A stretch of DNA of 64,000 nucleotides from an uncultured Methanomassiliicoccales archaeon (GTDB lineage Archaea; Thermoplasmatota; Thermoplasmata; RBG-16-68-12; JAJISG01): the NCBI GenBank assembly GCA_964347795.1, contig CAYFZX010000001.1, positions 2,202-66,201 on the forward strand. The letters are read 5' to 3'. This document shows, piece by piece, positions 8,727-50,038 of the stretch. Made by a program: the position numbers and the translations under genes. The first letter of the stretch is position 1. The number at the start of each line of letters is the position of its first letter. Below the pieces are notes generated by a model. The model had not been told where the DNA came from, did not search any database, and saw only the letters and a list, made by a program, of their open reading frames with translations.

Positions 8727-10202
8727 TTAGCTATACGGGAAGATGTGAGGCGCCTCCGGTTCCTCGCTGTAGTCCAGGTAGACGGTCTTGATGTGGAAGT
8801 AGTGGTCGAAGCCATAGATGGATCCGTCCCCTCCGAGGCCTGACTTCCGGAAACCAGCGTGGTATCCGTGGACCGTCTCTGGTCCCACCTGGTTTATGTA
8901 GGTCTCCCCGAACCGCAGCTTATGAGCCGCCTTCATGGCCGCCCCGACATCCTGGGTGAAGATGTAGCTAGCCAGGCCGTACTCCGAGTCGTTGGAGTAG
9001 CTGACGACTTCGTCAAAGTCGGAGAAGCTTTTCAGCGGTGTCACAGGACCGAAGATCTCCTTCTGGACGATGTCCATGTCCTGTTCCACGTCCTCGATTA
9101 CCGTTGGGGCGAACCAGTAGCCCCTCTCAAATCCTGTCCCGCGGAGCCTCGAGCCCCCCGTCAGAAGCTTCGCCCCCTCATCTAGGGCCCTCTGCACGGA
9201 GCTCTCCACAGTGTCCAGCTGGTCAGCGGCGACAAGGGGGCCCATGTCGACCCCCGGTTTCATCGGGTCCCCGATGCGAAGGCTCTCCACCCCTTCCACG
9301 TATTTCTTCTTGAAGCGGTCGTAGAGATCCTCGTGGACGTAGGTCCTCTCGTTGCAGATGCAGGTCTGCCCCGCATTCCAGTACCGGGCCCACAGGGCGT
9401 TCTTCACCGCCCATCCAAGGTCCGCGTCCTTCCACACGATGAAAGGGGCCTTCCCGCCAAGCTCGAGGACTAGGTGGGTAAGGTTTCCGCTGGCGGCCTC
9501 CATAATCCTCGTTCCCGTCTCCACGGAGCCCGTCATAGTCACCATCTCGGTGAGTGGATTGCGAACGAGTTCGTCGCCTACGGTGCTCCCTGGGCCTGTG
9601 AGGAGATTGACCAGGCCCCTCGGGATGTCCAGCTTCTCGGTGAGCCTCACGATCTCCACCGCAGACAGAGGCGTGTAGGAGGAGGGTTTCAGGACGATGC
9701 CGTCCCCAGCGACGATGGCCGGGGCCATCTTCCTCGTGACCATGGCCGCGGGGAAATTCCACGGTGTGATGCCCGCGACCACCCCCACGGGGACCTTAAG
9801 GATCATTATCGTCCGCTCGGGAGCTTCCCCGGGTAGTACGCTGCCCTCGATCTGCCTCGCCAGGCTGGCGTAATACCGGCAGTATTCCGCAGCGCCCTGG
9901 ACGTCCTCCCTCGCCTCCTTCAGCGGCTTCCCCTCCTCAGCGGTCACAACCTTCGCCAGCCTCTCCTTCTCGTCCTCTATGAGATCCGCCAGCTTCCAGA
10001 CCACCTTGGCGCGCTGGGATGCGGGAACGCTCTCCCATTCTCGTTGAGCCTGGCTGGCCGCTTCGAGGGCTCGCCTTGCGTCCTCCCGAGTTCCCTGGGG
10101 GACACGGTCCACCGTCGCCTCGGTGGCCGGGTTCAAAACGTCGAGGTAATCGCCTGACGAACTCTCTATCCATTCGCCTTCGATGAAGAGCTTTTGAGTC
10201 AT
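8727..10202 (-). CDS. NAD(P)+ aldehyde dehydrogenase, probably glyceraldehyde dehydrogenase of the non-phosphorylative ED route
   Basis: ALDH-superfamily motifs GITPWNFP, ELGGKAP and the catalytic Cys in GQTCICNER. It is 491 aa. Confidence 0.85.
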   Translation of the reverse strand: MTQKLFIEGEWIESSSGDYLDVLNPATEATVDRVPQGTREDARRALEAASQAQREWESVPASQRAKVVWKLADLIEDEKERLAKVVTAEEGKPLKEAREDVQGAAEYCRYYASLARQIEGSVLPGEAPERTIMILKVPVGVVAGITPWNFPAAMVTRKMAPAIVAGDGIVLKPSSYTPLSAVEIVRLTEKLDIPRGLVNLLTGPGSTVGDELVRNPLTEMVTMTGSVETGTRIMEAASGNLTHLVLELGGKAPFIVWKDADLGWAVKNALWARYWNAGQTCICNERTYVHEDLYDRFKKKYVEGVESLRIGDPMKPGVDMGPLVAADQLDTVESSVQRALDEGAKLLTGGSRLRGTGFERGYWFAPTVIEDVEQDMDIVQKEIFGPVTPLKSFSDFDEVVSYSNDSEYGLASYIFTQDVGAAMKAAHKLRFGETYINQVGPETVHGYHAGFRKSGLGGDGSIYGFDHYFHIKTVYLDYSEEPEAPHIFPYS

Positions 10203-10276
10203 CGGCGAAGCTAGAGTCGAGTGCTTTATCTATCCTTGCATTCCGCCTGGCGACTCAGGGGAAAGGTTAAACCGCA

Positions 10277-11392
10277 ATGCGAAAGTGGTACACAAACGTG
10301 AAGAGCATCGCCGTGGAGCCGCCCAATCCGGGGGTGAAGCTTGTGGACTTCCCGGAGCCACGGCCAGGCTCTGACGAGGTCCTCGTGGGGACCATCGAAG
10401 TCGGAATCGATGGAACCGACCTGGAGATAGTCCGAGCTGAGTATGGGACCCCGCCGACGGGAGAGAAGTACCTCACCATTGGCCACGAGGCAATCGGTCG
10501 GGTGCTGAGGGCGCCCGAGGGGAGTCGCCTCGAGCCTGGAGACCTGGTGAACCCGACCGTGCGCCGTGGGTGTGGAATCTGCATGCCCTGCAAGACGGGT
10601 CAAAGTGACTTCTGCTTCACTGGTTTGTTCAAGGAGCGAGGCATCAAGGGCCTCCACGGATACATGTCTCCCACCTTCGCAGAGACGGAAGAGTATATGG
10701 TAAGGGTCCCCCCGGACCTCCGGAACGTGGCGGTCCTCACGGAGCCCACAAGCATCGCGGTTAAGGCGGTCAACCAGGTGCTCAAGATCCAGGAGAGGAT
10801 GCCTTGGCGGGAGGCGGAGAACTTGGAGGAGAAGCAGGCCCTGGTGGCAGGTTCCGGCTCCCTTGGGCTGCTGGCGACCATCCTTCTCCGATCACTCGGA
10901 GCCCAGGTCATCACGATGGATCGTTCGCCTGATGACGTACCCAAGGCGAAGCTCATCGAGCGAGTGGGAGCCCACCACCTCAACTCGAAGACAGTAGACC
11001 CCCTGGTCCTCGCCGAGGACTTCGACGGCTTCGACATCATCCTCGAGGCAACCGGAGCGGCACGAGTCCCCTTTCACCTGACACCCGCGCTTGCCACAAA
11101 CGGCATCATGGTCCTGCTGGGGGTGCCAGGGAAGAAGGTCACCGTCGAGGTGGAGGCTGCAGACATAATCAGGGACATGGTCCTTGAGAATCAGGTGGTC
11201 TTCGGCTGCGTGAACTCAAATGTTTCCCACTTCAAAGAGGCCCACACCTATCTGAGGGGGTTCATTGAAAGGTTCCCCGAGGAGATGCAGGCGTTCATCA
11301 GCCACCGCCATCCCTGGGAGGAATATGAGGAGGCCTTCGGAGAGGATCGGAAGAACGTCATCAAGCACGTCCTTGTCTGGGAGGAGGGCTGA
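10277..11392 (+). CDS. Glucose 1-dehydrogenase, archaeal MDR/zinc-ADH family
   Basis: Zn-ADH fold (GHEAIGRV, CGICMPC structural-Zn cysteines) with a length and pattern like the Sulfolobus/Thermoplasma glucose dehydrogenases. Confidence 0.8.
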   Translation: MRKWYTNVKSIAVEPPNPGVKLVDFPEPRPGSDEVLVGTIEVGIDGTDLEIVRAEYGTPPTGEKYLTIGHEAIGRVLRAPEGSRLEPGDLVNPTVRRGCGICMPCKTGQSDFCFTGLFKERGIKGLHGYMSPTFAETEEYMVRVPPDLRNVAVLTEPTSIAVKAVNQVLKIQERMPWREAENLEEKQALVAGSGSLGLLATILLRSLGAQVITMDRSPDDVPKAKLIERVGAHHLNSKTVDPLVLAEDFDGFDIILEATGAARVPFHLTPALATNGIMVLLGVPGKKVTVEVEAADIIRDMVLENQVVFGCVNSNVSHFKEAHTYLRGFIERFPEEMQAFISHRHPWEEYEEAFGEDRKNVIKHVLVWEEG

Positions 11393-18435: not shown

Positions 18436-19731
18436 GCTTTCAACCCCAATAAAGACCCGCCGAACCGATTTGCTGTCCTCCTTCTCTCCAAGTAGCAGGG
18501 CAACTTCCTTGGGGGTGAGATCCAGAGAAAGTGTCTGGGCCATGCGGAAGTCCTCGTCATGTTTGAACAAGGTTACAAACATTGGCAGGAGGTATTCACG
18601 AGCTTGCCTCCTGGAGGTGTGACATGACCGTCCAAGCTTCAGTAGTATGGAGGCCACCGTGGCACGTCTCATCCGACTTCGAGACATCTTGGATAGCCAA
18701 AGTGGGAATCGATATCTTGCCCCTGCATAATCTCCGTGACGAGCAACGACGAGGCCTCCCGTCATCAAGTCGCTGGCGTACTTCCACAGGCCGTATCGCT
18801 GTTTGCGTCGCACCATCCCGAGGTATTCGTCCGCCCTCGCGAGGGCCCTCAACCCCCTCTCCAAGTCCTGAGGCTCCCGATACTCGAAAGGCAAGTTCTC
18901 ATCGATCCAGAGGATGAGCCTTTCGGGGTCCTCGTTGAGAGAGCGGACGCTCTCCCGGGCCCGATCCAGGCTCCCGGATCGAAATATGTCCCCCAGGACC
19001 TGGAAGACTTCCGACCGCTCGTCTCGATACCCCAGGGCCAAGAGGTCGTCCTCGGTGACTTCCTTTCTCCCCTGGGCGAGGGCCTGCAGATCGTTGATGG
19101 CTGACCGGAAGTCCCCTCGAGACCTCTCTGCGATGTATTGGAGGACCTCCTCGCGGGTCTCCACTCCTTCTTCCTTGGCGATGTCCCGGAGAACCTTCGC
19201 CACGGTTTCCTGCCGAGGGGTGCGGAACTTGATGGTATCGCAGAGCCCCTTGACGGCGGAGGAACGCCGAGTCAGCTCGTAGTAGTCATTGACGATGAGC
19301 GCGATAGGCTGCTGTGTCCTCCTGATCGTATCTACGATGGCGCCGATGCCGCCATAGTCCTCTCGCCCGAAGAGGTTGTCCGCCTCGTCCAGTATGATGA
19401 GCTTTCGCCCCCCCTCTTGATGCCGAATGAAGTCGCCGTCATCGGTGAACGTTTCATACAGGGCACCGCGCGTGGCTATCTCCTTCACTGCCGCCGCGTT
19501 CCGCTTGTCGGAAGCGTTCATCTCGATCACGCCCCAGCCGAAGTCGCCCGCGAGAGCGTGTGCCGCGCTCGTCTTGCCGATGCCGGGATTCCCCACCAAG
19601 ATGATCGCCCTCTTCTTGGGGGTCCCGCGCTCCCAGGACTCGGCCCATGCCTCCAGCTGACCGGTGGCCGTAGGGTTCCCCGCGACATCCTTCAGGGACC
19701 TGGGCCTGTGTTTCTCGGCCCAGTCTAGCAT
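18391..19731 (-). CDS. rfcL: Replication factor C large subunit
   Basis: MLDWAEKHRPRSLKDVAGN..., Walker A VGNPGIGKTS, LILDEADN and an RFC box pattern. Confidence 0.85.
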   Translation of the reverse strand: MLDWAEKHRPRSLKDVAGNPTATGQLEAWAESWERGTPKKRAIILVGNPGIGKTSAAHALAGDFGWGVIEMNASDKRNAAAVKEIATRGALYETFTDDGDFIRHQEGGRKLIILDEADNLFGREDYGGIGAIVDTIRRTQQPIALIVNDYYELTRRSSAVKGLCDTIKFRTPRQETVAKVLRDIAKEEGVETREEVLQYIAERSRGDFRSAINDLQALAQGRKEVTEDDLLALGYRDERSEVFQVLGDIFRSGSLDRARESVRSLNEDPERLILWIDENLPFEYREPQDLERGLRALARADEYLGMVRRKQRYGLWKYASDLMTGGLVVARHGDYAGARYRFPLWLSKMSRSRMRRATVASILLKLGRSCHTSRRQAREYLLPMFVTLFKHDEDFRMAQTLSLDLTPKEVALLLGEKEDSKSVRRVFIGVESLRSGKAVPFSRFES

Positions 19732-33649: not shown

Positions 33650-34117
33650 CTAGTCCAACATCCTAAGGATCAGGTCGTTTATGGACTCTCCCCTGTAGCC
33701 CAAGGCCCCCCCGTTGGAGAAGGGGCGCTTAATGCCCTCATAGCCCCGTTTTGGTGGATGGAGGCGGAACACGGGTTTCACGTCCTGCAGCTTCGTCATC
33801 TCCACGTCCCCCTCGGTGAGGGCCTTACCCAGGGACTTGACTGAGGGGAATCCCAGAGACTCCTTCACGAACTTGTCAGTAAGGGGCTTGTCGCCAGCCA
33901 CCCGAGCCTTGGATGTCAGGAGTTTCGACAGGACCTCCAGATTCAGCTCGCCCCAGGTGATGTAGTCCTTGGTCTTTTGCAGCATGCCCAGGTAGTCCTC
34001 CCGTGGGGGGACGATGACACAGTGGTTCGGACGGTGAAGGTGAAGCATCTGGAGGGTGTCCTGGATGTCCCTCCTGACGTTGGCTGTTCCCCTGACCCTG
34101 ACGACGCCGAGGCTCAT
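33650..34117 (-). CDS. rpl30: Ribosomal protein uL30
   Basis: Archaeal L30 pattern, 155 aa. Confidence 0.85.
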
Positions 34118-35001
34118 TTCTTCGCGCCCTCACTTTCCTCTTCGGGTTTCTTACCAGTGGCTTCAGTGGGTTTCGCGGCTTCGTCCTCGGCCGTGGCCTC
34201 GGCTTCCCCTTCGGGCTCTCCCCGCGCTTCGGGCTGGGCCTTCTCTTCCGGGGCCTCAGCTGGGGCTTCCCCCTCAGCGGGGAGGGGGGGCTCCTCGCCG
34301 GCCTCGACTGCCTCCTCTTCCGGCTCCACAGCCGTCAGGTCAACTTCGTAGGGGACAGCCGGCCCGGAAAGAATGTGTAGCGAGCCCATCTGTCCTCCAG
34401 AGACCTTGAACTCCATGGTCTTCCTGAGGGCCTCAAAGGCTGCATGGGCGTAGTTGACCGTGGTTTTCGTGTGGCCCCTGGAGAAACCCCACACGTCCTC
34501 AACGCCGGAGAGTCTCACCACGCTCTTCACGATGTCTGCCACGGCCATGCCCACGCCCCGGGGGGCCGGCTTCAAGGTAACCTTCACCGAGCCGCTCTTA
34601 CCCGTGACCTTGAAGGGAAGGGTGTGCGGCCGGAGGCATCCGCACTCCCACGATCCACACCCCCGCTTGACCTCGATGATGTTGAGCTTGGCATTGTCAA
34701 TGGCCTTACGAATGGCCGGGCCCACTTCCTTGCCCTTGACCCTTCCCACGCCCACATACCCGTCACCATTGCCCACGACGACGGTGATGACGAAGTTGAT
34801 CCTTCGGCCGGAGTCCGTCATCCTTTGGACCATGTTGACATCGAGAACCTCATCGTCCATCTCCGGCAAGAGAACGTCCACGATTTCCGGCTCCCGCAAC
34901 GGGAGGCCTGTCCGGAGGGCTTCGCCCATGGAGGTGACCTCTCCCCGAACGACCATCTTGCCAAGGGCCGTCTTCGGAATCCACTCCTCAAGCCTTCTCA
35001 T
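34114..35001 (-). CDS. rps5: Ribosomal protein uS5 with an ~80-aa E/A/P-rich acidic C-terminal extension
   Basis: S5 core ([22 protein letters not shown]...) followed by ...[43 protein letters not shown]... Confidence 0.9.
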
Positions 35002-35503: not shown

Positions 35504-35955
35504 GTTCCCCCCTTGAGATAACCCTCGGACTCTAGATGTTGCAGGAGATGGGCCCTGCTGCGATACATGCCTCCCTTGGCCCTGAGGTACAGTTTCCGAT
35601 AACTCGCCTGATCAATCTTCCCCTGGTCCCGCAGCTCACGGAGGACCTCCCTCAAGGCCCTGATCGTGCGCATCCAGTGCTCCTTCTTGGGACCTCTGGC
35701 GCCCTTGGCCCCCTTGCGGCTTCCAGGGCCGCGACGTCTCCCCTTCTTCCTCTGCTGAGCCCTGTACCGGATGCGGCTCTGGGACTTCCCCTGGATTGGG
35801 AGCTTCCGGATGAGTCCTGCGTCGATGACGGCCCTCACATCGTCCCGCGTAATGGCGTCCGCTACGTCATCCAGGCGGTTGGGGTCGATCCAGACCCGGT
35901 TTTCCCCACACTTCAGGATTGCCGCGGCCATCCTGCGCTGATTGCTGAGGTTCAC
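35500..35955 (-). CDS. rpl19e: Ribosomal protein eL19
   Basis: L19e pattern (NQRRMAAAILKCGENRVWIDP). Confidence 0.9.
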   Translation of the reverse strand: MNLSNQRRMAAAILKCGENRVWIDPNRLDDVADAITRDDVRAVIDAGLIRKLPIQGKSQSRIRYRAQQRKKGRRRGPGSRKGAKGARGPKKEHWMRTIRALREVLRELRDQGKIDQASYRKLYLRAKGGMYRSRAHLLQHLESEGYLKGGT

Positions 35956-36572
35956 TCCACCACCCTGTTAAGGACCCTTATCCCCGCCTCATCGGCCTCT
36001 TCCTGAATCACGATACGCTTCCGGGTGCCGACACTGTGCGCAATCCGCACGGCCTGCGTCTTTGCGTCCAGTCCCTCAAGCTCCCCCGGACGGTGTACCA
36101 AGATCTCCTCAAAGCCTGTGGGATGCAGGCCCCGAACCTCCCGAGGACCTCGGTGTCCCGACGAGGGCAAGGACCCTCGGTATCCCAGGCGCCGTCGCAA
36201 CTTCGAGTGTTTGCCCCTTGGTCTCCGCCACTTGTCACCCAGTCGGCCGTAGCGAAACCACTCCTGTCGACGGAAGCGCGGGCGACGGTCCCGAAGTTGA
36301 CGTCGCAGTGCGAGCAGCTTGACAGTCGCCGAGTCGAGGGAGGCCTTCTCCTTCACTGCGTAGACTTCCTCGAGGATCTCCTCCTCGGCGACCTCCTCTT
36401 CTTCGAGCTCAACCTCTTCCTCCATCGCCTCCAGGTGGCCAAGGAGCCTCTCGCGGAGCTCAGCAACGGTCCCGGCATCATCTAGCTCAGCGCTCCGGCA
36501 CCAATCCTGCAGTTCAGCCTTTCGAGCCTTGCGGATCTCGGTCCTCGTGGGGAATTTGTCCTTCCCCGCCAA
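35952..36572 (-). CDS. rpl32e: Ribosomal protein eL32 with an N-terminal SAP-like domain and acidic linker
   Basis: C-terminal L32e core. N-terminus IRKARKAELQDWCRSAELDDAGTVAELRERLLGHLE followed by an acidic stretch. Confidence 0.85.
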   Translation of the reverse strand: MAGKDKFPTRTEIRKARKAELQDWCRSAELDDAGTVAELRERLLGHLEAMEEEVELEEEEVAEEEILEEVYAVKEKASLDSATVKLLALRRQLRDRRPRFRRQEWFRYGRLGDKWRRPRGKHSKLRRRLGYRGSLPSSGHRGPREVRGLHPTGFEEILVHRPGELEGLDAKTQAVRIAHSVGTRKRIVIQEEADEAGIRVLNRVVE

Positions 36573-37124: not shown

Positions 37125-37514
37125 TCAGTACACGTATGCCAGGAGCCGACCGCCGACACCCTCGTCTTTCGCCTGAGAATGCGTAAGGACTCCCTTCGTT
37201 GTCGTCAGTATGAGGAGGCCGAAATCTTGAGCAGGGAGGTATCTAGACTCATACCGGTCCAGCTCACCGACCTTGACGGCAAAGCGTGGCCTGATCACGC
37301 CGCAGTCGTTCACGTTCCCCTTGAGGTCGACCACGAAGTACCCTCCCCTCCCGTCCTCCCTCAACTCGAAGGCCTGAATGTAGTCCGACTCCTGCATAAC
37401 CCTCAGAACCCGACCGATGAGCCTGGAGGCTGGCTTGATGTTGCACGACGTGTGACCGCTGTCCTCCGCGTTTTTCAGGGACACCAGGGCGTCGTTGAGG
37501 GGATCATGTCTCAT
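37125..37514 (-). CDS. rps8: Ribosomal protein uS8
   Basis: MRHDPLNDALVSLKNAEDSGH... The start is the internal ATG. Confidence 0.85.
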   Translation of the reverse strand: MRHDPLNDALVSLKNAEDSGHTSCNIKPASRLIGRVLRVMQESDYIQAFELREDGRGGYFVVDLKGNVNDCGVIRPRFAVKVGELDRYESRYLPAQDFGLLILTTTKGVLTHSQAKDEGVGGRLLAYVY

Positions 37515-37522
37515 CAAATCAC

Positions 37523-37672
37523 CTAGGAATACTTCCTGAAGCCGAGCTCGAAGGCCATCTCTCGAAAGCATTGACGACATAGGTGGAGGCCATATCGCCT
37601 GACGATGCCCCTCTTCCGGCCGCACCGTAGACATCCCACCTTTCGGCCGAACTGCTTCCGAGTCCTGACCAT
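37523..37672 (-). CDS. rps14: Ribosomal protein uS14 (type Z, zinc-binding; 49 aa)
   Basis: Translated by hand: [49 protein letters not shown]. It was not in the ORF track because it is short. Confidence 0.85.
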
Positions 37673-40834: not shown

Positions 40835-41827
40835 CTACGCCTCCTTCTTCTCGTCCTCATCCTTGGTGGGACCTTGCTTCTTGGCGCCTTCTTCACTCTT
40901 CTTGGCGGCCTTCGAGGGCTCCGAGGGGGTCTTGGCCCCCTTGGCCGCTGCCTTCTCCTTCCCTTCCCCAACCTTCTCAGCCTCGGCTTCCTCTGGCTCC
41001 TCGACCTCCTGTCCCTCCGGTTCGGGAAGCTCTGTCTCTTCCACGGGCTTGACATCCGCTTCCACGCCGACGTCTTCCGCAGTCTTCTTGTTCCGCTCTA
41101 GCTGCTTTTCCACTCGCCCGCCAGCCACGGCCTCCTTCTCCTCTCGGGCCTTCGTCAGAATCTTGGCGGCCTCCTCGGCCACCTCCTCTTCGGCCTCGAC
41201 CTCTGGCACCGGGGCGACCTCCTCAACCGCAACCCGTGCTCGCACCTCAATCTCGTCCGGGAAGTTCGCATCGGGGTCCGTGATCCACACGGTGACGCCG
41301 ATGACCCCTTTCTTTACCTTGGCGGTGGCGAAGCCAACGCGGACAAAGTCATTCTTCGGCTCACCGCAGTATTTGATGTGGCCCGCCTTGAACTTCTGAG
41401 TCCTGTGCCTCTGACTCGTCAGCTTGCCTGATATCTTTATGAGGGAACCCTTGGCCCCCGCCTCCATAATCCGTCGCAAGGTGGAGTGGCCCGCTCGGCG
41501 GAAGTGCCACCCCCGCTCCAGAGCGCTGGCCAACTTCTCCGCCATGATCTGGGCGTTGAGGGCCGGGAGACCCACCTCCTCCACCTCTATTTGCGGATTG
41601 TCCAGGTCGAAACTACGGTCGATGGAACTCGTCAACTCCTTTATGGAAGCCCCACGGCGTCCTATGACGATGCCTGGCCTCTCGGCGAAGAGAGTAATGC
41701 GGGTGCCCATGGGTGTCCTCTGAATGTCTAGGCCCCCGAAGCCCGCCCTCTGAGTCTCCTTCATCACGTACTCCTTCAGGAGAACCCGCTTGAGATTGTC
41801 CTCCACGATCTTCCTCTCGCCCGCCAC
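40835..41827 (-). CDS. rps3: Ribosomal protein uS3 with a ~110-aa K/E/A-rich C-terminal tail
   Basis: S3 KH and C-terminal domains through residue ~215, then a low-complexity charged tail (…EEVAPVPEVEAEEEVAEEAAKILTKAREEKE…KKEA). Confidence 0.9.
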   Translation of the reverse strand: MAGERKIVEDNLKRVLLKEYVMKETQRAGFGGLDIQRTPMGTRITLFAERPGIVIGRRGASIKELTSSIDRSFDLDNPQIEVEEVGLPALNAQIMAEKLASALERGWHFRRAGHSTLRRIMEAGAKGSLIKISGKLTSQRHRTQKFKAGHIKYCGEPKNDFVRVGFATAKVKKGVIGVTVWITDPDANFPDEIEVRARVAVEEVAPVPEVEAEEEVAEEAAKILTKAREEKEAVAGGRVEKQLERNKKTAEDVGVEADVKPVEETELPEPEGQEVEEPEEAEAEKVGEGKEKAAAKGAKTPSEPSKAAKKSEEGAKKQGPTKDEDEKKEA

Positions 41828-43735: not shown

Positions 43736-44737
43736 CTACGCCTTCCAGGTTCCCACCTCCTCGAAGGCTTCTTGGCTGAACAAGGTCAGTCGCCCGGGTA
43801 CCCCACCCGGAGCCAGGAGTTCGGCATTCAGTCCCTGCGGATTGGCTATCTCAACGCCTGGAAGATTCCTGAACGCCTTGCCCCCAGGGCAACCCGGAGA
43901 GAGGACAACCAAGGGACCCTTCTTCCTCCGGTACCGCCGGCCCCTCATCTTCCCCCTGCCCGCCCTCACATTCTTCACGGAGGCCCTCTCAATGTCCTCG
44001 TGGAGTCCAAGACGATCGAGGAGCTCTGCCGCGTCCTTCGTCCTCTCTAGCTTCTCCACCTTGCCCTCCACGACCACCGGAAGGGACACTTGGTCGTTGA
44101 AGCGGTGACCGCGGCCGGCCACGAGCTGAGGGTCCGCGGTGGCGGCGAGGGCGGAGAAGCGGGCAAACCTCCTCTCCTTCTTATTGAGTTTCTTCTCCCA
44201 GATCCGCTCTGGCCGCGGTGGGTGGGCCCTCCGACCGCCAACAGTACCCGGTGCCTGAGCCGCTCGCCGACTGTCCTTCAGTCTCGGAACTCGGGATACC
44301 CCCCGCCCCTTACCCCACCAGGAGACCGAATGCTGCAATCCTGAGAGGGAACTGGGGCCGTAGGGCTGCCGCCTGTTGGCCCTGAAGGCGTCCACAGCGC
44401 GCTTGATCAGGTCCACGCGCACCTCCCCCTGGAAGACCGGTGGCAGGTCGATGACCTTCTTGACCTTGCCGTCCAACGAATAGACGTATACCTGGCCCGC
44501 CTTTCGTTTAGGGAGCTTCGGCTTCTTGACCTCCTCTTCCACTTCCTCAATGACGAGGTACTCCTCCGACTCCAGATGAGCGATGAGGCGCTTCCTGAGC
44601 TCATCCACCTTGCCCTCGGAGTCCAGGTCAAAGGCTTGGCACCACTCCTGCAGCTGAGCCTTCCTGGCCTTCCGCACGTCCTTGGGTTCGATCTGCGGAA
44701 GCTCTTCCTCCTTGGGTTTCTTCGCCATCCTAGGCAC
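43736..44737 (-). CDS. rpl4: Ribosomal protein uL4 with an N-terminal SAP-like domain and acidic linker
   Basis: L4 core from about residue 75. N-terminus VRKARKAQLQEWCQAFDLDSEGKVDELRKRLIAHLE followed by an acidic linker. Confidence 0.85.
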   Translation of the reverse strand: MPRMAKKPKEEELPQIEPKDVRKARKAQLQEWCQAFDLDSEGKVDELRKRLIAHLESEEYLVIEEVEEEVKKPKLPKRKAGQVYVYSLDGKVKKVIDLPPVFQGEVRVDLIKRAVDAFRANRRQPYGPSSLSGLQHSVSWWGKGRGVSRVPRLKDSRRAAQAPGTVGGRRAHPPRPERIWEKKLNKKERRFARFSALAATADPQLVAGRGHRFNDQVSLPVVVEGKVEKLERTKDAAELLDRLGLHEDIERASVKNVRAGRGKMRGRRYRRKKGPLVVLSPGCPGGKAFRNLPGVEIANPQGLNAELLAPGGVPGRLTLFSQEAFEEVGTWKA

Positions 44738-46017: not shown

Positions 46018-46049
46018 TATGCAGACTCACAAGGTTGCTTCTGAGGGCT

Positions 46050-46613
46050 ATGGGAGCCAAGCGGATCAAGATGAAGGTCTGTCTCGTGGGGGAGGCCGCG
46101 GTCGGCAAGACGAGCCTCATCCGCCGCTTCGTCCACGACAACTTCGACGACAAGTACATCCAGACTCTCGGGACCAAGGTGTCCAAGAAAGAGATTGGCT
46201 TGGACACGCCGGGGGACGATGGTGTCCAGGTGGACATGACCATCTGGGACATCATGGGACAGAAAGGCTTCCGAGAGCTCCTCAAGGAGGCTTACTTCTA
46301 CGGCGCCAAAGGGATCATCGCCGTCTGCGACGTGAGCAGGAAGAACACGCTGGACGACCTGGACGATTGGATTGAGGGCGTTTACAGCGTGACGGGCCGC
46401 ATCCCCATTGAGATCTTCGCCAACAAGGTCGACCTGGAGGACAAGACAGAAGTCGGCAAGGGCGAGGTGGAGCAGTTCTCCAAGGCCTATGACTCTCCCT
46501 TCCATTTCACGAGCGCAAAGACAGGAGAGAACGTGGAGGACGCCTTCAAGGGCTTGGCCCGCCGAATAGCGGAGGAACGGCTGGCCCAGAGCGTCATCCA
46601 AGGCGCGAAGTAG
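46050..46613 (+). CDS. Rab/Ras-like small GTPase, paralog 1 (canonical Gln in G3)
   Basis: G1 LVGEAAVGKTSL, switch-I YIQTLGTKV, G3 WDIMGQ, G4 NKVD, G5 TSAKTGENV. No C-terminal Cys. Confidence 0.85.
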   Translation: MGAKRIKMKVCLVGEAAVGKTSLIRRFVHDNFDDKYIQTLGTKVSKKEIGLDTPGDDGVQVDMTIWDIMGQKGFRELLKEAYFYGAKGIIAVCDVSRKNTLDDLDDWIEGVYSVTGRIPIEIFANKVDLEDKTEVGKGEVEQFSKAYDSPFHFTSAKTGENVEDAFKGLARRIAEERLAQSVIQGAK

Positions 46614-46671
46614 AATCAGCGTTGATACGCTGGTGGGAAGGGTTATCTTCTGCGGGCTCAGAGCAGTCTCG

Positions 46672-47220
46672 ATGGCCATCCTCGAGGCGCCGAAGACGAA
46701 AGTCATCAAGGCCAAGGTCTGTCTGGTGGGGGAGTTCGCCGTCGGCAAGACGAGTCTGGCAAAGCGTTATGTACACAACATCTTCGAGGATCGCTACTTC
46801 GCCACAATCGGCGCGAAGATCACCAAAGCGGAAATCGAACGGGTCGGTGACGATTCTGCTCAGGTCGTCATGACCATCTGGGACATCATGGGAGAGAAGG
46901 GCTTCCGGGAGCTGCTGAAGGAAGCCTACTTCGAAGGGGCCAACGGCACCCTCGCCGTGTGCGACCTCACCAGGGCGGACACGCTGGAGGACCTTCGCGG
47001 TTGGATTGACGCCGTGAAGAGGATCGCCGGGGATGTCCCGATGATCCTCGTGGGGAACAAGGCCGACCTCGAGGAGCAGATGCAGATCCATGAGAAGGAC
47101 GTGGCTAGTTTCGCCAAAGGAGTCGGATACAATCACGTCATGACTAGCGCCAAGACGGGGGAGAATGTTCAGACGGCCTTCAAAGCAATCGCCCGGGAAA
47201 TCGTTCGAATCAGGGATTGA
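46672..47220 (+). CDS. Rab/Ras-like small GTPase, paralog 2 (Glu replaces the catalytic Gln in G3)
   Basis: G1 LVGEFAVGKTSL, G3 WDIMGE, G4 NKAD, G5 TSAKTGENV. Confidence 0.85.
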   Translation: MAILEAPKTKVIKAKVCLVGEFAVGKTSLAKRYVHNIFEDRYFATIGAKITKAEIERVGDDSAQVVMTIWDIMGEKGFRELLKEAYFEGANGTLAVCDLTRADTLEDLRGWIDAVKRIAGDVPMILVGNKADLEEQMQIHEKDVASFAKGVGYNHVMTSAKTGENVQTAFKAIAREIVRIRD

Positions 47221-47346: not shown

Positions 47347-47886
47347 ATGGCTGCGACGGAGAAGATGAAAGTCAAGGTCTGCCTCGTTGGTGAGGGGGCC
47401 GTAGGCAAGACTTGCCTCATCAGGCGGTTCATCCACGACGAGTTCGATGATCGTTACATCTCCACCCTCGGAGCCAAGGTGTCCAAGAAGGAGATTGTCG
47501 TGGACCACGGCTCCGGCGTTGAGGTCGACATGACCATCTGGGACATCATGGGAGAGAAGGGCTTCCGGGAGCTGCTGAAGGAAGCCTATTTCCATGGCGC
47601 CCAGGGAATCCTGGCCGTCTGCGATGTCACCAGGAAGGATACTCTCTACGACCTCCATGACTGGGTGAAGGCCGTGAACAAGGTGACGGGCGACATACCG
47701 ATTCACTTCCTCGCAAACAAGGTCGACTTGGAAGAGCAGGTCAGCTTCGATGAGAAGGATCTCGAGAAAGCGGCCAAGAAGTATACGGCGCCCTACATCT
47801 ACACTAGCGCAAAGACCGGTGAGAATGTCCAGGTTGCCTTCGAGAAGTTGGCGGACATGATCGCCAAACGCATGGTCGCCCCTTAG
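47347..47886 (+). CDS. Rab/Ras-like small GTPase, paralog 3 (Glu in G3)
   Basis: G1 LVGEGAVGKTCL, G3 WDIMGE, G4 NKVD, G5 TSAKTGENV. It has its own TATA (TTTATAAT at 47298-47305). Confidence 0.85.
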   Translation: MAATEKMKVKVCLVGEGAVGKTCLIRRFIHDEFDDRYISTLGAKVSKKEIVVDHGSGVEVDMTIWDIMGEKGFRELLKEAYFHGAQGILAVCDVTRKDTLYDLHDWVKAVNKVTGDIPIHFLANKVDLEEQVSFDEKDLEKAAKKYTAPYIYTSAKTGENVQVAFEKLADMIAKRMVAP

Positions 47887-48061
47887 GATAACCTCCTCCC
47901 ACGACCCCCTGACTTCCCTGGTTCATGGACGTCCAGGGGGCCTCTCTCTTACGGGGTCTACCTTCTGGCAGAGTCCGGTTCGATGCCCCAACCGATTCTT
48001 GTAGAATAAGTTTAATAGGATGGAGGTCCTATTCAAATTAGTTGTAGAGGGATGGCGCCAG

Positions 48062-50038
48062 ATGGCTGGGAAGGGTTCTGCAGACACCGCTGACCAACGC
48101 CTACCATCTCTTGAGAAGTGGGCCAAGGGCCAGACCATCGAGTCCACCGCGGAGATCGACATTCCTGAGCAGCTGGTGGACCAAGTCATCGGTCAGGAGG
48201 AAGCCGTTGAGGTCTCCAAGAAGGCGGCGGACCAGAAGCGGCACGTCATGCTTATCGGCGACCCAGGCACGGGCAAGTCCATGCTCGCTCGGGCCATGTC
48301 GGAATTGCTTCCCCGAGAAGAGCTTCAGGACATCATAGTCTACCACAATCCTGAGGACTCCAACGAGCCGAAGATCCGTATCGTCCCCGCCGGGAAGGGC
48401 AAGGAGATTGTCCACGCCCACAAGGCTGACGCCTTGCGTCGGAAGGAGCAAAGGGCCTCGATGCTGACAACCATCATCGTGGTCATCATCATCATGTCAG
48501 CGGCACTGGCCTTCTTGATCCAACCTCCGAACCCCATGGTCTTGCTCTTCGGCATCCTGGTGGCGGCCATCCTCTTCATGGCCACCCGTTACGCCGGTAA
48601 CAAGCAGGATATGCTTGTCGTACCGAAGCTCTTGGTGGGTCACGACCCGGACGATATGCCCCCGTTCATTGACGCCACGGGGTCTCACGCAGGTGCGTTG
48701 CTGGGTGATGTGAGACACGACCCGTTCCAGTCGGGTGGATTGGAAACCCCGGCCCACGAGAGGGTCGAGGCCGGCTCCATTCACAAGTCCCACAAGGGAG
48801 TCCTCTTCATCGATGAAATCAACGTCCTCCGCCTGGAGAGCCAGCAGAGTCTCTTGACGGCCCTCCAGGAGAAGAAGTTCAGTATCGTTGGCCAGAGCGA
48901 GAGGAGCGCTGGCGCCATGGTCAAAACGGAGGCTGTGCCGTGTGATTTCATCCTGGTGGCTGCGGGCAACCTCGACGCTTTGGCGGGCATGCATCCCGCC
49001 CTTCGGTCAAGGATTCGCGGGTACGGTTATGAGGTCTTTGTCAAGAGCACGATGCCCGACAACCTGGACAACCGTCGAAGGATGATTCGTTTCACGGCCC
49101 AGGAGGTCTTCAAGGACGGAAAGATCCCGCACTTCGACATGGCGGGGGTCGTGGAGATCGTCCGAGAGGCTCAGAGGAGGGCAGGGCGAAGGGGACAGCT
49201 CACCCTGAGGCTCCGGGAGCTTGGCGGCCTGATTCGAGTGGCAGGGGATATAGCCCGGGAGCAAGGTGCACCCTTGGCCTCGGCAGAGCACGTACTCGCA
49301 GCCAAGAGGATGGCAAGAAGCCTGGAGCAACAGGTCGCCGACAGGTTCATCGAACGCAGGCGGGACTACAAGACGTTTGTCACAGAGGGCGCGCTAGTCG
49401 GGATTGTCAATGGGCTGGCCGTCTTGAACGCGGACCCAAGCATGGCCGAATTCTCTGGCATTGTCCTGCCCATCGTGGCGGAGGTGACTCCTGCCCAGAG
49501 CAAGAACGACGGTAAGATCATCGCCACTGGCCGACTGGGTGAGATTGCCAAGGAGGCGGTGCAGAACGTCTCCGCCCTGATCAAGAAGTACACGGGCGAG
49601 GACATCAGCAACTACGACATCCACGTGCAGTTCGTAGGAACCCACGAGGGTGTGGAAGGGGACAGCGCGTCCATATCCGTTGCGACCGCGGTCATCTCGG
49701 CTCTGGAGGAGGTAGACGTCGACCAGACTGTGGCCATGACAGGATCCCTAAGCATCAGAGGGCAGGTCCTCCCCGTGGGTGGCATCACCGCGAAGATAGA
49801 GGCCGCCGCAGACATGGGCTTCAGGAAGGTCCTGATCCCCAAGGCCAACGCCAACGACGTCCTCATCGAAAGCAAGTACGTCGGACGAGTCGAGATCGAG
49901 CCCGTGGAAACGCTGAAGGACGTCCTTGACCACGCCCTGGTGGGCCCAAGGAAGAGCGGGCTCATCAGCAAGCTGACCTCCATGGTTTCACCCAGACCCA
50001 AACCAGTCGTCGGGCACGACAGAGCGGTCCCCCAATAG
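48062..50038 (+). CDS. lon: Archaeal membrane-bound Lon protease LonB
   Basis: AAA+ Walker [10 protein letters not shown] with an inserted TM hairpin ([17 protein letters not shown]...[12 protein letters not shown]). C-terminal Lon protease domain with catalytic Ser in [15 protein letters not shown] and Lys in KIEAA. Confidence 0.9.

Follow-up and report, generated by a model that had tools for sequence, protein, structure and literature searches.

The stretch analysed here, hereafter the window, comprises 64,000 nucleotides (64 kb; G+C content 60%) of contig CAYFZX010000001.1 from an uncultured Methanomassiliicoccales archaeon, and carries on its minus strand a ribosomal protein operon of standard archaeal type. 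Two large-subunit proteins of this operon, eL32 and uL4, begin with N-terminal extensions, each of which holds a copy of the same small module, placed by our computations in the SAP family, followed by a charged linker. The genes and their parts are as follows (pLDDT, predicted local distance difference test).

35952-36572, minus strand: eL32 gene, 206 amino acids, TTG start; Pfam Ribosomal_L32e (PF01655) at residues 98-202
36429-36548, minus strand: predicted SAP-type module of eL32, residues 9-48, TRTEIRKARKAELQDWCRSAELDDAGTVAELRERLLGHLE
36357-36428, minus strand: acidic linker of eL32, residues 49-72, net charge -13, pLDDT 51-63
43736-44728, minus strand: uL4 gene, 330 amino acids, ATG start; Pfam Ribosomal_L4 (PF00573) at residues 94-325
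44570-44689, minus strand: predicted SAP-type module of uL4, residues 14-53, EPKDVRKARKAQLQEWCQAFDLDSEGKVDELRKRLIAHLE
44495-44569, minus strand: linker of uL4, residues 54-78, acidic SEEYLVIEEVEEEV and then basic KKPKLPKRKAG

Both genes encode genuine ribosomal proteins. The eL32 product matches its Pfam family at 127.4 bits (cut-off 25) and solved archaeal eL32 chains with E-values down to 4e-34, and its gene lies between those of uL6 and eL19, an order repeated in three other loci used for comparison (L005, L006 and L007); the uL4 product scores 127 bits against its family (cut-off 25.8), and its gene sits between uL3 and uL23. Between 75 and 90 N-terminal residues of each protein lie outside the Pfam core, in agreement with the original prediction, made from the letters of the window, that both proteins start with about 70 extra residues (we count about 75 each). 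The positions it gave for the shared element, 36437-36548 and 44572-44686, translate to eL32 residues 9-45 and uL4 residues 15-52, i.e. to the module itself. The TTG start of eL32 abuts the TAA stop of uL6 and has GGAGG 5 nucleotides upstream, and eL32 orthologues begin at the equivalent position and cover 97-100% of the query. The predicted length of 206 residues for eL32 thus stands; the 333 residues predicted for uL4 probably do not, since they derive from a longer open reading frame (ORF), as listed, that opens at GTG 44737 and adds 3 residues to the form starting at ATG 44728. We regard ATG 44728 as the likelier start, because it is preceded by AAGGTG and because its 330-residue product is 100% identical to an NCBI-called protein (P0121, GCA_012974945.1).

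Could the extensions be artefacts of upstream start annotation, or the module a recent duplication or gene conversion? The TTG start of eL32 gives the first idea some footing, as does P0043 (154 residues), a homologue called from an internal Met, and the second can point to similar DNA strings in the two copies; even so, we consider this explanation extremely improbable. All but one of the 120 nearest eL32 homologues (119) have the module at the same place, the lone exception being P0043, and the internal Met from which P0043 is called is not conserved. Among the 120 nearest uL4 homologues 27 carry the module, all with at least 56% identity. When the codons of the extensions were compared between the window and L001, a metagenome-assembled genome (MAG) labelled as Methanomassiliicoccales, eL32 showed 31 identical, 20 synonymous and 22 replacement codons, and uL4 32, 29 and 17, respectively. 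Because synonymous changes are about as frequent as replacements, or more so, this comparison indicates that the extensions are under purifying selection and translated as protein. More than 100 homologues conserve the extensions in both sequence and position; this, together with selection at the codon level and a Shine-Dalgarno-like motif before both starts, led us to reject the start-codon artefact, one of the outcomes by which the original prediction would have fallen. In our survey the eL32 fusion is standard within a large clade of uncultured Thermoplasmata and thus no oddity of this one genome, whereas the uL4 fusion is confined to a sub-clade. No cultured organism with a SAP fusion occurred among the homologues found, all of which carry MAG labels (e.g. 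'Thermoplasmata archaeon'); the only cultured relative met was Aciduliprofundum boonei, whose eL32 (137 residues) has no extension.

A BLASTP alignment of the two N-termini joins them without gaps over 38 positions, 22 of them identical (58%) and 32 positive, at an E-value of 1e-15. The claimed shared motif is hence real, but its description as near-identical was overstated. Six-frame scans with hidden Markov models (HMMs) uncovered no third copy of the module in the window, the next match having E > 0.1. In AlphaFold2 models of both proteins the module consists of a short basic helix, a second helix, an 8-residue extended loop and a long helix: in eL32 the helices span residues 10-15, 18-27 and 36 onward (module pLDDT 86-89), and in uL4 residues 15-20, 23-32 and 41-56 (81-89). 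Its net charge is close to 0: the N-terminal helix contributes +3 and the remainder -3 to -4. The predicted acidic stretch follows it in both proteins, with net charges of -13 (eL32 residues 49-72) and -5 (uL4 residues 54-70), and model confidence falls below a pLDDT of 50 at uL4 residues 56-66. The linker of uL4 contains an 'EEYL' motif that is kept across the alignment of the window-type clade, and the linkers of eL32 vary among orthologues in length and in composition (some purely acidic, others K/E/A/P-rich), in contrast to the conserved module. Each extension is accordingly modelled as a module of about 40 residues, predicted to fold independently, joined to the ribosomal core by a flexible and largely acidic linker of 20-30 residues.

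A net charge of -13 beside an Arg/Lys-rich core raises the thought that the eL32 extension serves mostly as an intrinsic chaperone or solubility tag, in which an acidic linker shields the basic core before assembly and the SAP module is incidental. Long acidic C-terminal tails on uS3 and uS5 in the same window fit this proposal, as does the need of eukaryotic uL4 for a dedicated chaperone, Acl4 (PMC4598080). The folded module is, however, the conserved part and the linker the variable one, six module positions are invariant in an alignment of 62 sequences, and a chaperone role requires no folded SAP or helix-hairpin-helix, (HhH)2, domain of the kind described below; we judge the proposal very unlikely.

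Several lines of evidence place the module in the SAP family. The Pfam models SAP (PF02037) and SAP_new25 match both copies with E-values of 1e-4 to 1e-2. Within the full proteins the Pfam SAP score is 19.1 bits for eL32 and 15.1 bits for uL4, and with the extension scanned alone it reaches 21.8 bits (E 1.5e-4) and 19.0 bits, all scans giving E-values between 1.5e-4 and 1.8e-2; some orthologues are already annotated with PF02037. In the 62-sequence alignment K10, L13, G26, V28, L31 and R34 (module numbering) are invariant and A8, L22, R32 and L35 at least 90% conserved (R32 in 58 of 62), which reproduces the SAP residue pattern: hydrophobic positions, a Gly that never varies in the loop between the helices, and R-L at the C-terminal end. 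The top five PDB matches of a profile built from these sequences are SAP-containing chains, namely of Hcc-1 (E 0.006), DEK and 3'hExo, with E1B-AP5 lower. Searched with the same profile, 1.84 billion representative proteins gave 484 matches at E <= 1e-3; of the 120 matches that were scanned, 70 contain Pfam SAP at E <= 1e-3 and 8 are eL32, and no ribosomal protein family beyond eL32 was present among them, bar one chimeric, frameshifted uS8 read-through.

The predicted fold agrees with this assignment. Foldseek searches of the PDB with the uL4 N-terminus returned SAP-domain chains as the 12 best matches (DEK, 3'hExo, Hcc-1 and E1B-AP5), most of them aligned over 36-45 columns at a root-mean-square deviation of 0.7-1.6 Å and a probability of 0.97-1.0; E-values for the top SAP chains were 0.1-1.2, as expected for so small a domain, and MKL1, Tho1, PIAS1 and Ku70 followed lower in the list. 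Nothing relevant was obtained by searching the PDB with the extension as a single sequence, the informative matches coming only via the profile, and a fold search with the full eL32 model gave eL32 cores only. As alternative families Rho_N and HeH/LEM were considered and rejected, given that the window copies match neither in Pfam, and no HhH family occurs among the Pfam matches of the window extensions (E <= 1). By profile, motif, predicted fold and transitive homology the module is thus assigned to the SAP family, bearing out the identity originally proposed for it, and we are highly confident that genuine eL32 and uL4 proteins here bear SAP-type modules.

To see how eL32 is extended elsewhere in the class, we used as query the eL32 of L002, a Thermoplasmata MAG in which neither eL32 nor uL4 has the module, and classed its 120 best relatives. 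The most frequent extension was not SAP, found in 18, but an (HhH)2 module with a charged linker, found in 77 (Pfam HHH_5 at E <= 1e-3 in 32 of the 120 scanned); 13 have no extension, A. boonei among them, and 12 have low-complexity sequence alone. Every linker meets the core at a shared 'EE.GY.VK.KP.L' junction. The (HhH)2 fold is a classic binder of duplex backbones, and the (HhH)2-bearing eL32 proteins of other uncultured Thermoplasmata (e.g. P0404-P0411, P0501 and P0488) resemble the window protein in phylum, operon, insertion point and linker-core junction, but their added fold is unrelated to SAP and the uL4 of those organisms is without a module.

A structurally studied counterpart is L32e of Haloarcula marismortui, whose sequence we confirmed against its PDB chains (1JJ2 chain X, 1S72 chain Y and 4V9F chain Y). 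It likewise places a small helical module of duplex-DNA-binding type and an acidic linker before the core, at the same position, and its N-terminal part projects from the subunit. Its module is nevertheless not SAP but HHH_5/(HhH)2 (57.4 bits), with resemblance to the N-terminal domain of RadA/Rad51. Because its extension shows no HhH match, the window eL32 is an analogue of the Haloarcula type and not a member of it. We know of no uL4 fusion in Haloarcula.

How are the two modules of the window related? At the nucleotide level they are 65% identical, with 71%, 79% and 45% identity at codon positions 1, 2 and 3, and 12 of their 22 identical residues use the same codon. As identity at third positions is merely 45%, the resemblance of the two DNA sequences is what protein conservation imposes and nothing extra. 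On these values we rejected a recent duplication or gene conversion. The duplication that had been read from the similar DNA is upheld insofar as the copies are homologous; they are, however, old paralogues, from a duplication so ancient that synonymous sites are saturated. Concerted evolution as a general process was not significant in nine doubly fused genomes (identity 0.605 within versus 0.585 between genomes, permutation p = 0.12). Window-type uL4 modules are nearest to each other (73-98%), and the window uL4 copy finds its closest eL32 module outside its own genome, in a lineage further removed (P0115, 71%), the eL32 of its own genome giving 58%.

Locus L006 offers a different pattern. 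Its uL4 (10001-11149) and eL32 (18446-19198) modules share the lineage signature 'HEIRTAHK..LV.WCE' and are 63% alike, i.e. as similar to each other as to their orthologues, which hints at a separate eL32-to-uL4 transfer or gene conversion in that lineage; therefore one such transfer or several would both fit. In the uL4 of this locus a further stretch of about 85 residues precedes the module at the N-terminus, and the 'EEYL' motif is missing.

In the genomes examined uL4 has no module wherever eL32 carries (HhH)2 or nothing, and in genomes with (HhH)2-eL32 it is a plain protein of 259-274 residues. The uL4 module occurs only where eL32 carries SAP. The eL32 fusion is the older and more widespread of the two, and the uL4 module an old paralogous copy that arose within the SAP-eL32 lineage. 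The reverse combination of SAP on eL32 without a uL4 module does exist, in L007 (10001-10939), where uL4 (312 residues) begins instead with a basic, Lys/Ala/Pro-rich tail of about 55 residues. Similar basic tails are carried by many uL4 proteins of about 305-320 residues among our search matches, and the uL4 N-terminus is therefore a recurrent extension site as well.

The same SAP subfamily is common outside ribosomal proteins, in Zn-ribbon and Roadblock-like proteins and in large proteins with 2-6 copies. P0241 (1020 residues) starts like a signal peptide and has five SAP copies (75 bits over all five) gathered in the C-terminal third, P0251 (2202 residues) joins DUF11 repeats and a Roadblock/LC7 domain to SAP, and P0292 places a single SAP copy (37.5 bits) between two Zn-ribbons; hydrophobic, signal-peptide-like N-termini occur on two of the large multi-copy proteins. 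P0243 (L008:1-1082), with two copies, comes from the same MAG (GCA_046759185.1) as an operon with SAP on both uL4 and eL32. As the same subfamily also occurs in non-ribosomal proteins, one of them encoded in a Thermoplasmata genome alongside the ribosomal fusions, the label 'eukaryote-like' originally given to the motif is misleading. These data also show SAP domains to be abundant outside eukaryotes.

Eukaryotic SAP domains (Hcc-1/SARNP, DEK, 3'hExo/ERI1, E1B-AP5, Tho1, PIAS1 and Ku70) do remain the best profile and fold matches of the window module, and share with it the fold of helix, extended loop and helix as well as the spacing of Leu, Gly and Arg residues (L13, L22, G26, L31, R34 and L35). 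The window module departs from them in an extra short basic helix (E-I/V-R-x-A-R/K-K) before helix 1, in a loop that is acidic and not basic, in its fusion to archaeal ribosomal proteins and in a score slightly under the Pfam cut-off. Another resemblance is to the ribosome-binding domain of LETM1/Mdm38 (PF07766), in which SAP-like helices occur in a protein associated with mitochondrial ribosomes: LETM1_RBD gives weak matches in 9 of 120 module-bearing proteins, and Mdm38 (3skq) is among the weak fold matches. In that case the module is carried by a ribosome-binding membrane protein and not by the ribosome itself, and we take this weak resemblance as a lead only.

The breadth of these architectures, several with 2-6 copies (P0241, P0251 and P0292 among them), suggests another function, in which the modules would be protein-protein or localisation adaptors that join ribosomes, multi-SAP (perhaps membrane-anchored) proteins and Zn-ribbon proteins via a shared partner or via SAP-SAP contacts. 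The co-occurrence of P0243 with a doubly fused operon in one MAG speaks for such adaptors, as do the acidic loop and near-zero net charge of the module. Yet the SAP structures that the module resembles include nucleic-acid-bound ones (according to PDB entry titles, DEK and Ku70 on nucleosomes and 3'hExo on an RNA stem-loop), its basic positions are strongly conserved, with Lys10 and Arg34 invariant and Arg32 in 58 of 62 sequences, and adaptors would leave the (HhH)2 module at the same eL32 position in sister lineages unexplained. All told, we think an adaptor role unlikely.

Where the two leashes are anchored bears on what the modules might do together. The yeast proteins uL4, eL18 and eL32 share a single sub-region within domain II of 25S ribosomal RNA (rRNA), on the solvent side, as their binding site; two of them, uL4 and eL32, also reach across to domain I, and the earliest steps of pre-60S assembly depend on both (PMC4671574). 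A second source counts eL32 among the early-assembling proteins of the nucleolus (PMC9932298). By analogy we infer that in the archaeal subunit, too, uL4 and eL32 have neighbouring anchor points on the solvent face. We propose that each 50S subunit, or nascent pre-50S particle, would then display two leashed SAP modules from one surface patch as a bivalent pair, that these modules would bind duplex nucleic acid (chromosomal DNA or structured RNA) with low specificity and in an avidity-dependent manner, and that ribosomes, pre-ribosomes or the free early-binding proteins would thereby be held near DNA or structured RNA. Low-specificity duplex binding is suggested because of the known ligands of SAP domains and because in sister lineages, and likewise in Halobacteria, this place is taken by the unrelated (HhH)2. 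The originally suggested tethering of ribosomes or pre-ribosomes to nucleic acid stays plausible, and it gains indirect support because SAP and (HhH)2 alternate at the same eL32 site.

A variant of RNA binding would have the module dock in cis on the rRNA of its own ribosome as a structural element, e.g. offsetting lost ribosomal proteins or stabilising some rRNA feature peculiar to the lineage. Among archaea, ribosomal protein sets are most reduced in Thermoplasmata and Halobacteria, which would suit such a role, and both carriers are primary rRNA binders at the junction of domains I and II; SAP can moreover bind structured RNA, as 3'hExo does on a histone mRNA stem-loop (PDB 1zbh and 4qoz, among our best fold matches). 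Against it, the linker is long, variable in composition and of low model confidence, and so resembles a leash more than a fixed strut, the analogous Haloarcula eL32 domain is missing from refined 50S models and is thus not stably docked there, and close lineages manage without a module (e.g. Aciduliprofundum, with its eL32 of 137 residues). Docking in cis seems to us improbable, and, as with the acidic tag, it fits the variable linker, the conserved fold and the unbuilt Haloarcula domain less well than leashed duplex binders do.

Several observations count against our own proposal of leashed SAP modules as duplex binders. Both copies score below the Pfam SAP gathering score of 23.9 bits (range 15-22 bits). 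In this subfamily 47 of 62 sequences have Asp at module position 23, within a loop that is acidic here but basic in the Pfam SAP consensus, and an acidic loop together with a near-zero net charge is atypical of a DNA binder, such that binding should not be assumed. The occurrence of the subfamily in Zn-ribbon and large multi-copy proteins means that the module could be a protein-protein or localisation device. In Haloarcula the L32e N-terminal domain is unbuilt in the 50S crystal models (about 142 of 240 residues built). The argument from a shared patch, finally, is extrapolated from yeast. Weighing these points, we offer the functional part, i.e. the leashed modules as binders of duplex nucleic acid, as a tentative suggestion whose odds we put clearly short of even; the proposal as a whole, SAP identity and leashed duplex-binding pair together, we regard as evenly balanced between right and wrong.

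Although speculative, and in our estimation improbable, a broader picture can be drawn in which Halobacteria and Thermoplasmatota have fitted the same patch of the large-subunit solvent face with leashed duplex-DNA binders, (HhH)2 or SAP on eL32 and SAP also on uL4, that tether ribosomes or pre-50S particles to the chromosome, in Thermoplasmata within a wider network of SAP 'address tags' that includes the multi-SAP and Zn-ribbon proteins. If true, this would provide a protein-encoded link between nucleoid and ribosome for co-transcriptional ribosome assembly or transcription-translation coupling.

In our full-text literature searches we found no account of archaeal ribosomal proteins bearing SAP or HhH domains. 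SAP domains themselves, extensions of ribosomal proteins and the extension of Haloarcula L32e are already known, and automatic Pfam annotation flags SAP on some of the homologues; what our analysis adds is the alternation of SAP, (HhH)2 and nothing at the eL32 N-terminus, the non-ribosomal SAP relatives and, by analogy with yeast, the proximity of uL4 and eL32. Lineage-specific extensions of ribosomal proteins are usually regarded as rRNA-binding tails, whereas in the present case an entire small domain, from a family of nucleic-acid binders, is leashed to the ribosome surface. The presence of two unrelated modules of the same functional type at one eL32 site in different archaeal lineages, with a copy on the neighbouring uL4, argues for a selected function as ribosome-borne duplex binders. 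If correct, this would also offer a reason for the N-terminal domain that L32e of Haloarcula carries, and it raises the question of whether some archaeal ribosomes or pre-ribosomes are attached directly to DNA or to specific RNA.

Further features were noted in the window. Downstream of its S3_C domain, uS3 (40835-41827, minus strand, 330 residues) continues for about 140 residues as a Glu/Lys/Ala-rich, low-complexity C-terminal tail, and uS5 (34114-35001, minus strand, 295 residues) ends in an acidic Pro/Ala/Glu tail about 85 residues long; charged tails of such length are therefore found on several ribosomal proteins here and not solely on the SAP-bearing pair. The ORF listed for uS8 (37125-37634, minus strand) runs to 169 residues from an upstream ATG, about 40 residues longer than its orthologues in L005-L007 (129 residues), and Pfam Ribosomal_S8 begins at residue 44, the true start probably being the internal Met at 'MRHDPLNDALV'. 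On the plus strand, divergent from the uL3-uL4 operon, lie three tandem small GTPases of Ras/Roc/Arf type (46035-46613, 46633-47220 and 47347-47886; Pfam Ras 126-132 bits each) and after them an archaeal LonB protease (48020-50038). This GTPase trio and LonB also adjoin the operon in L005, L006 and L007, and the arrangement is thus conserved in this Thermoplasmata clade.

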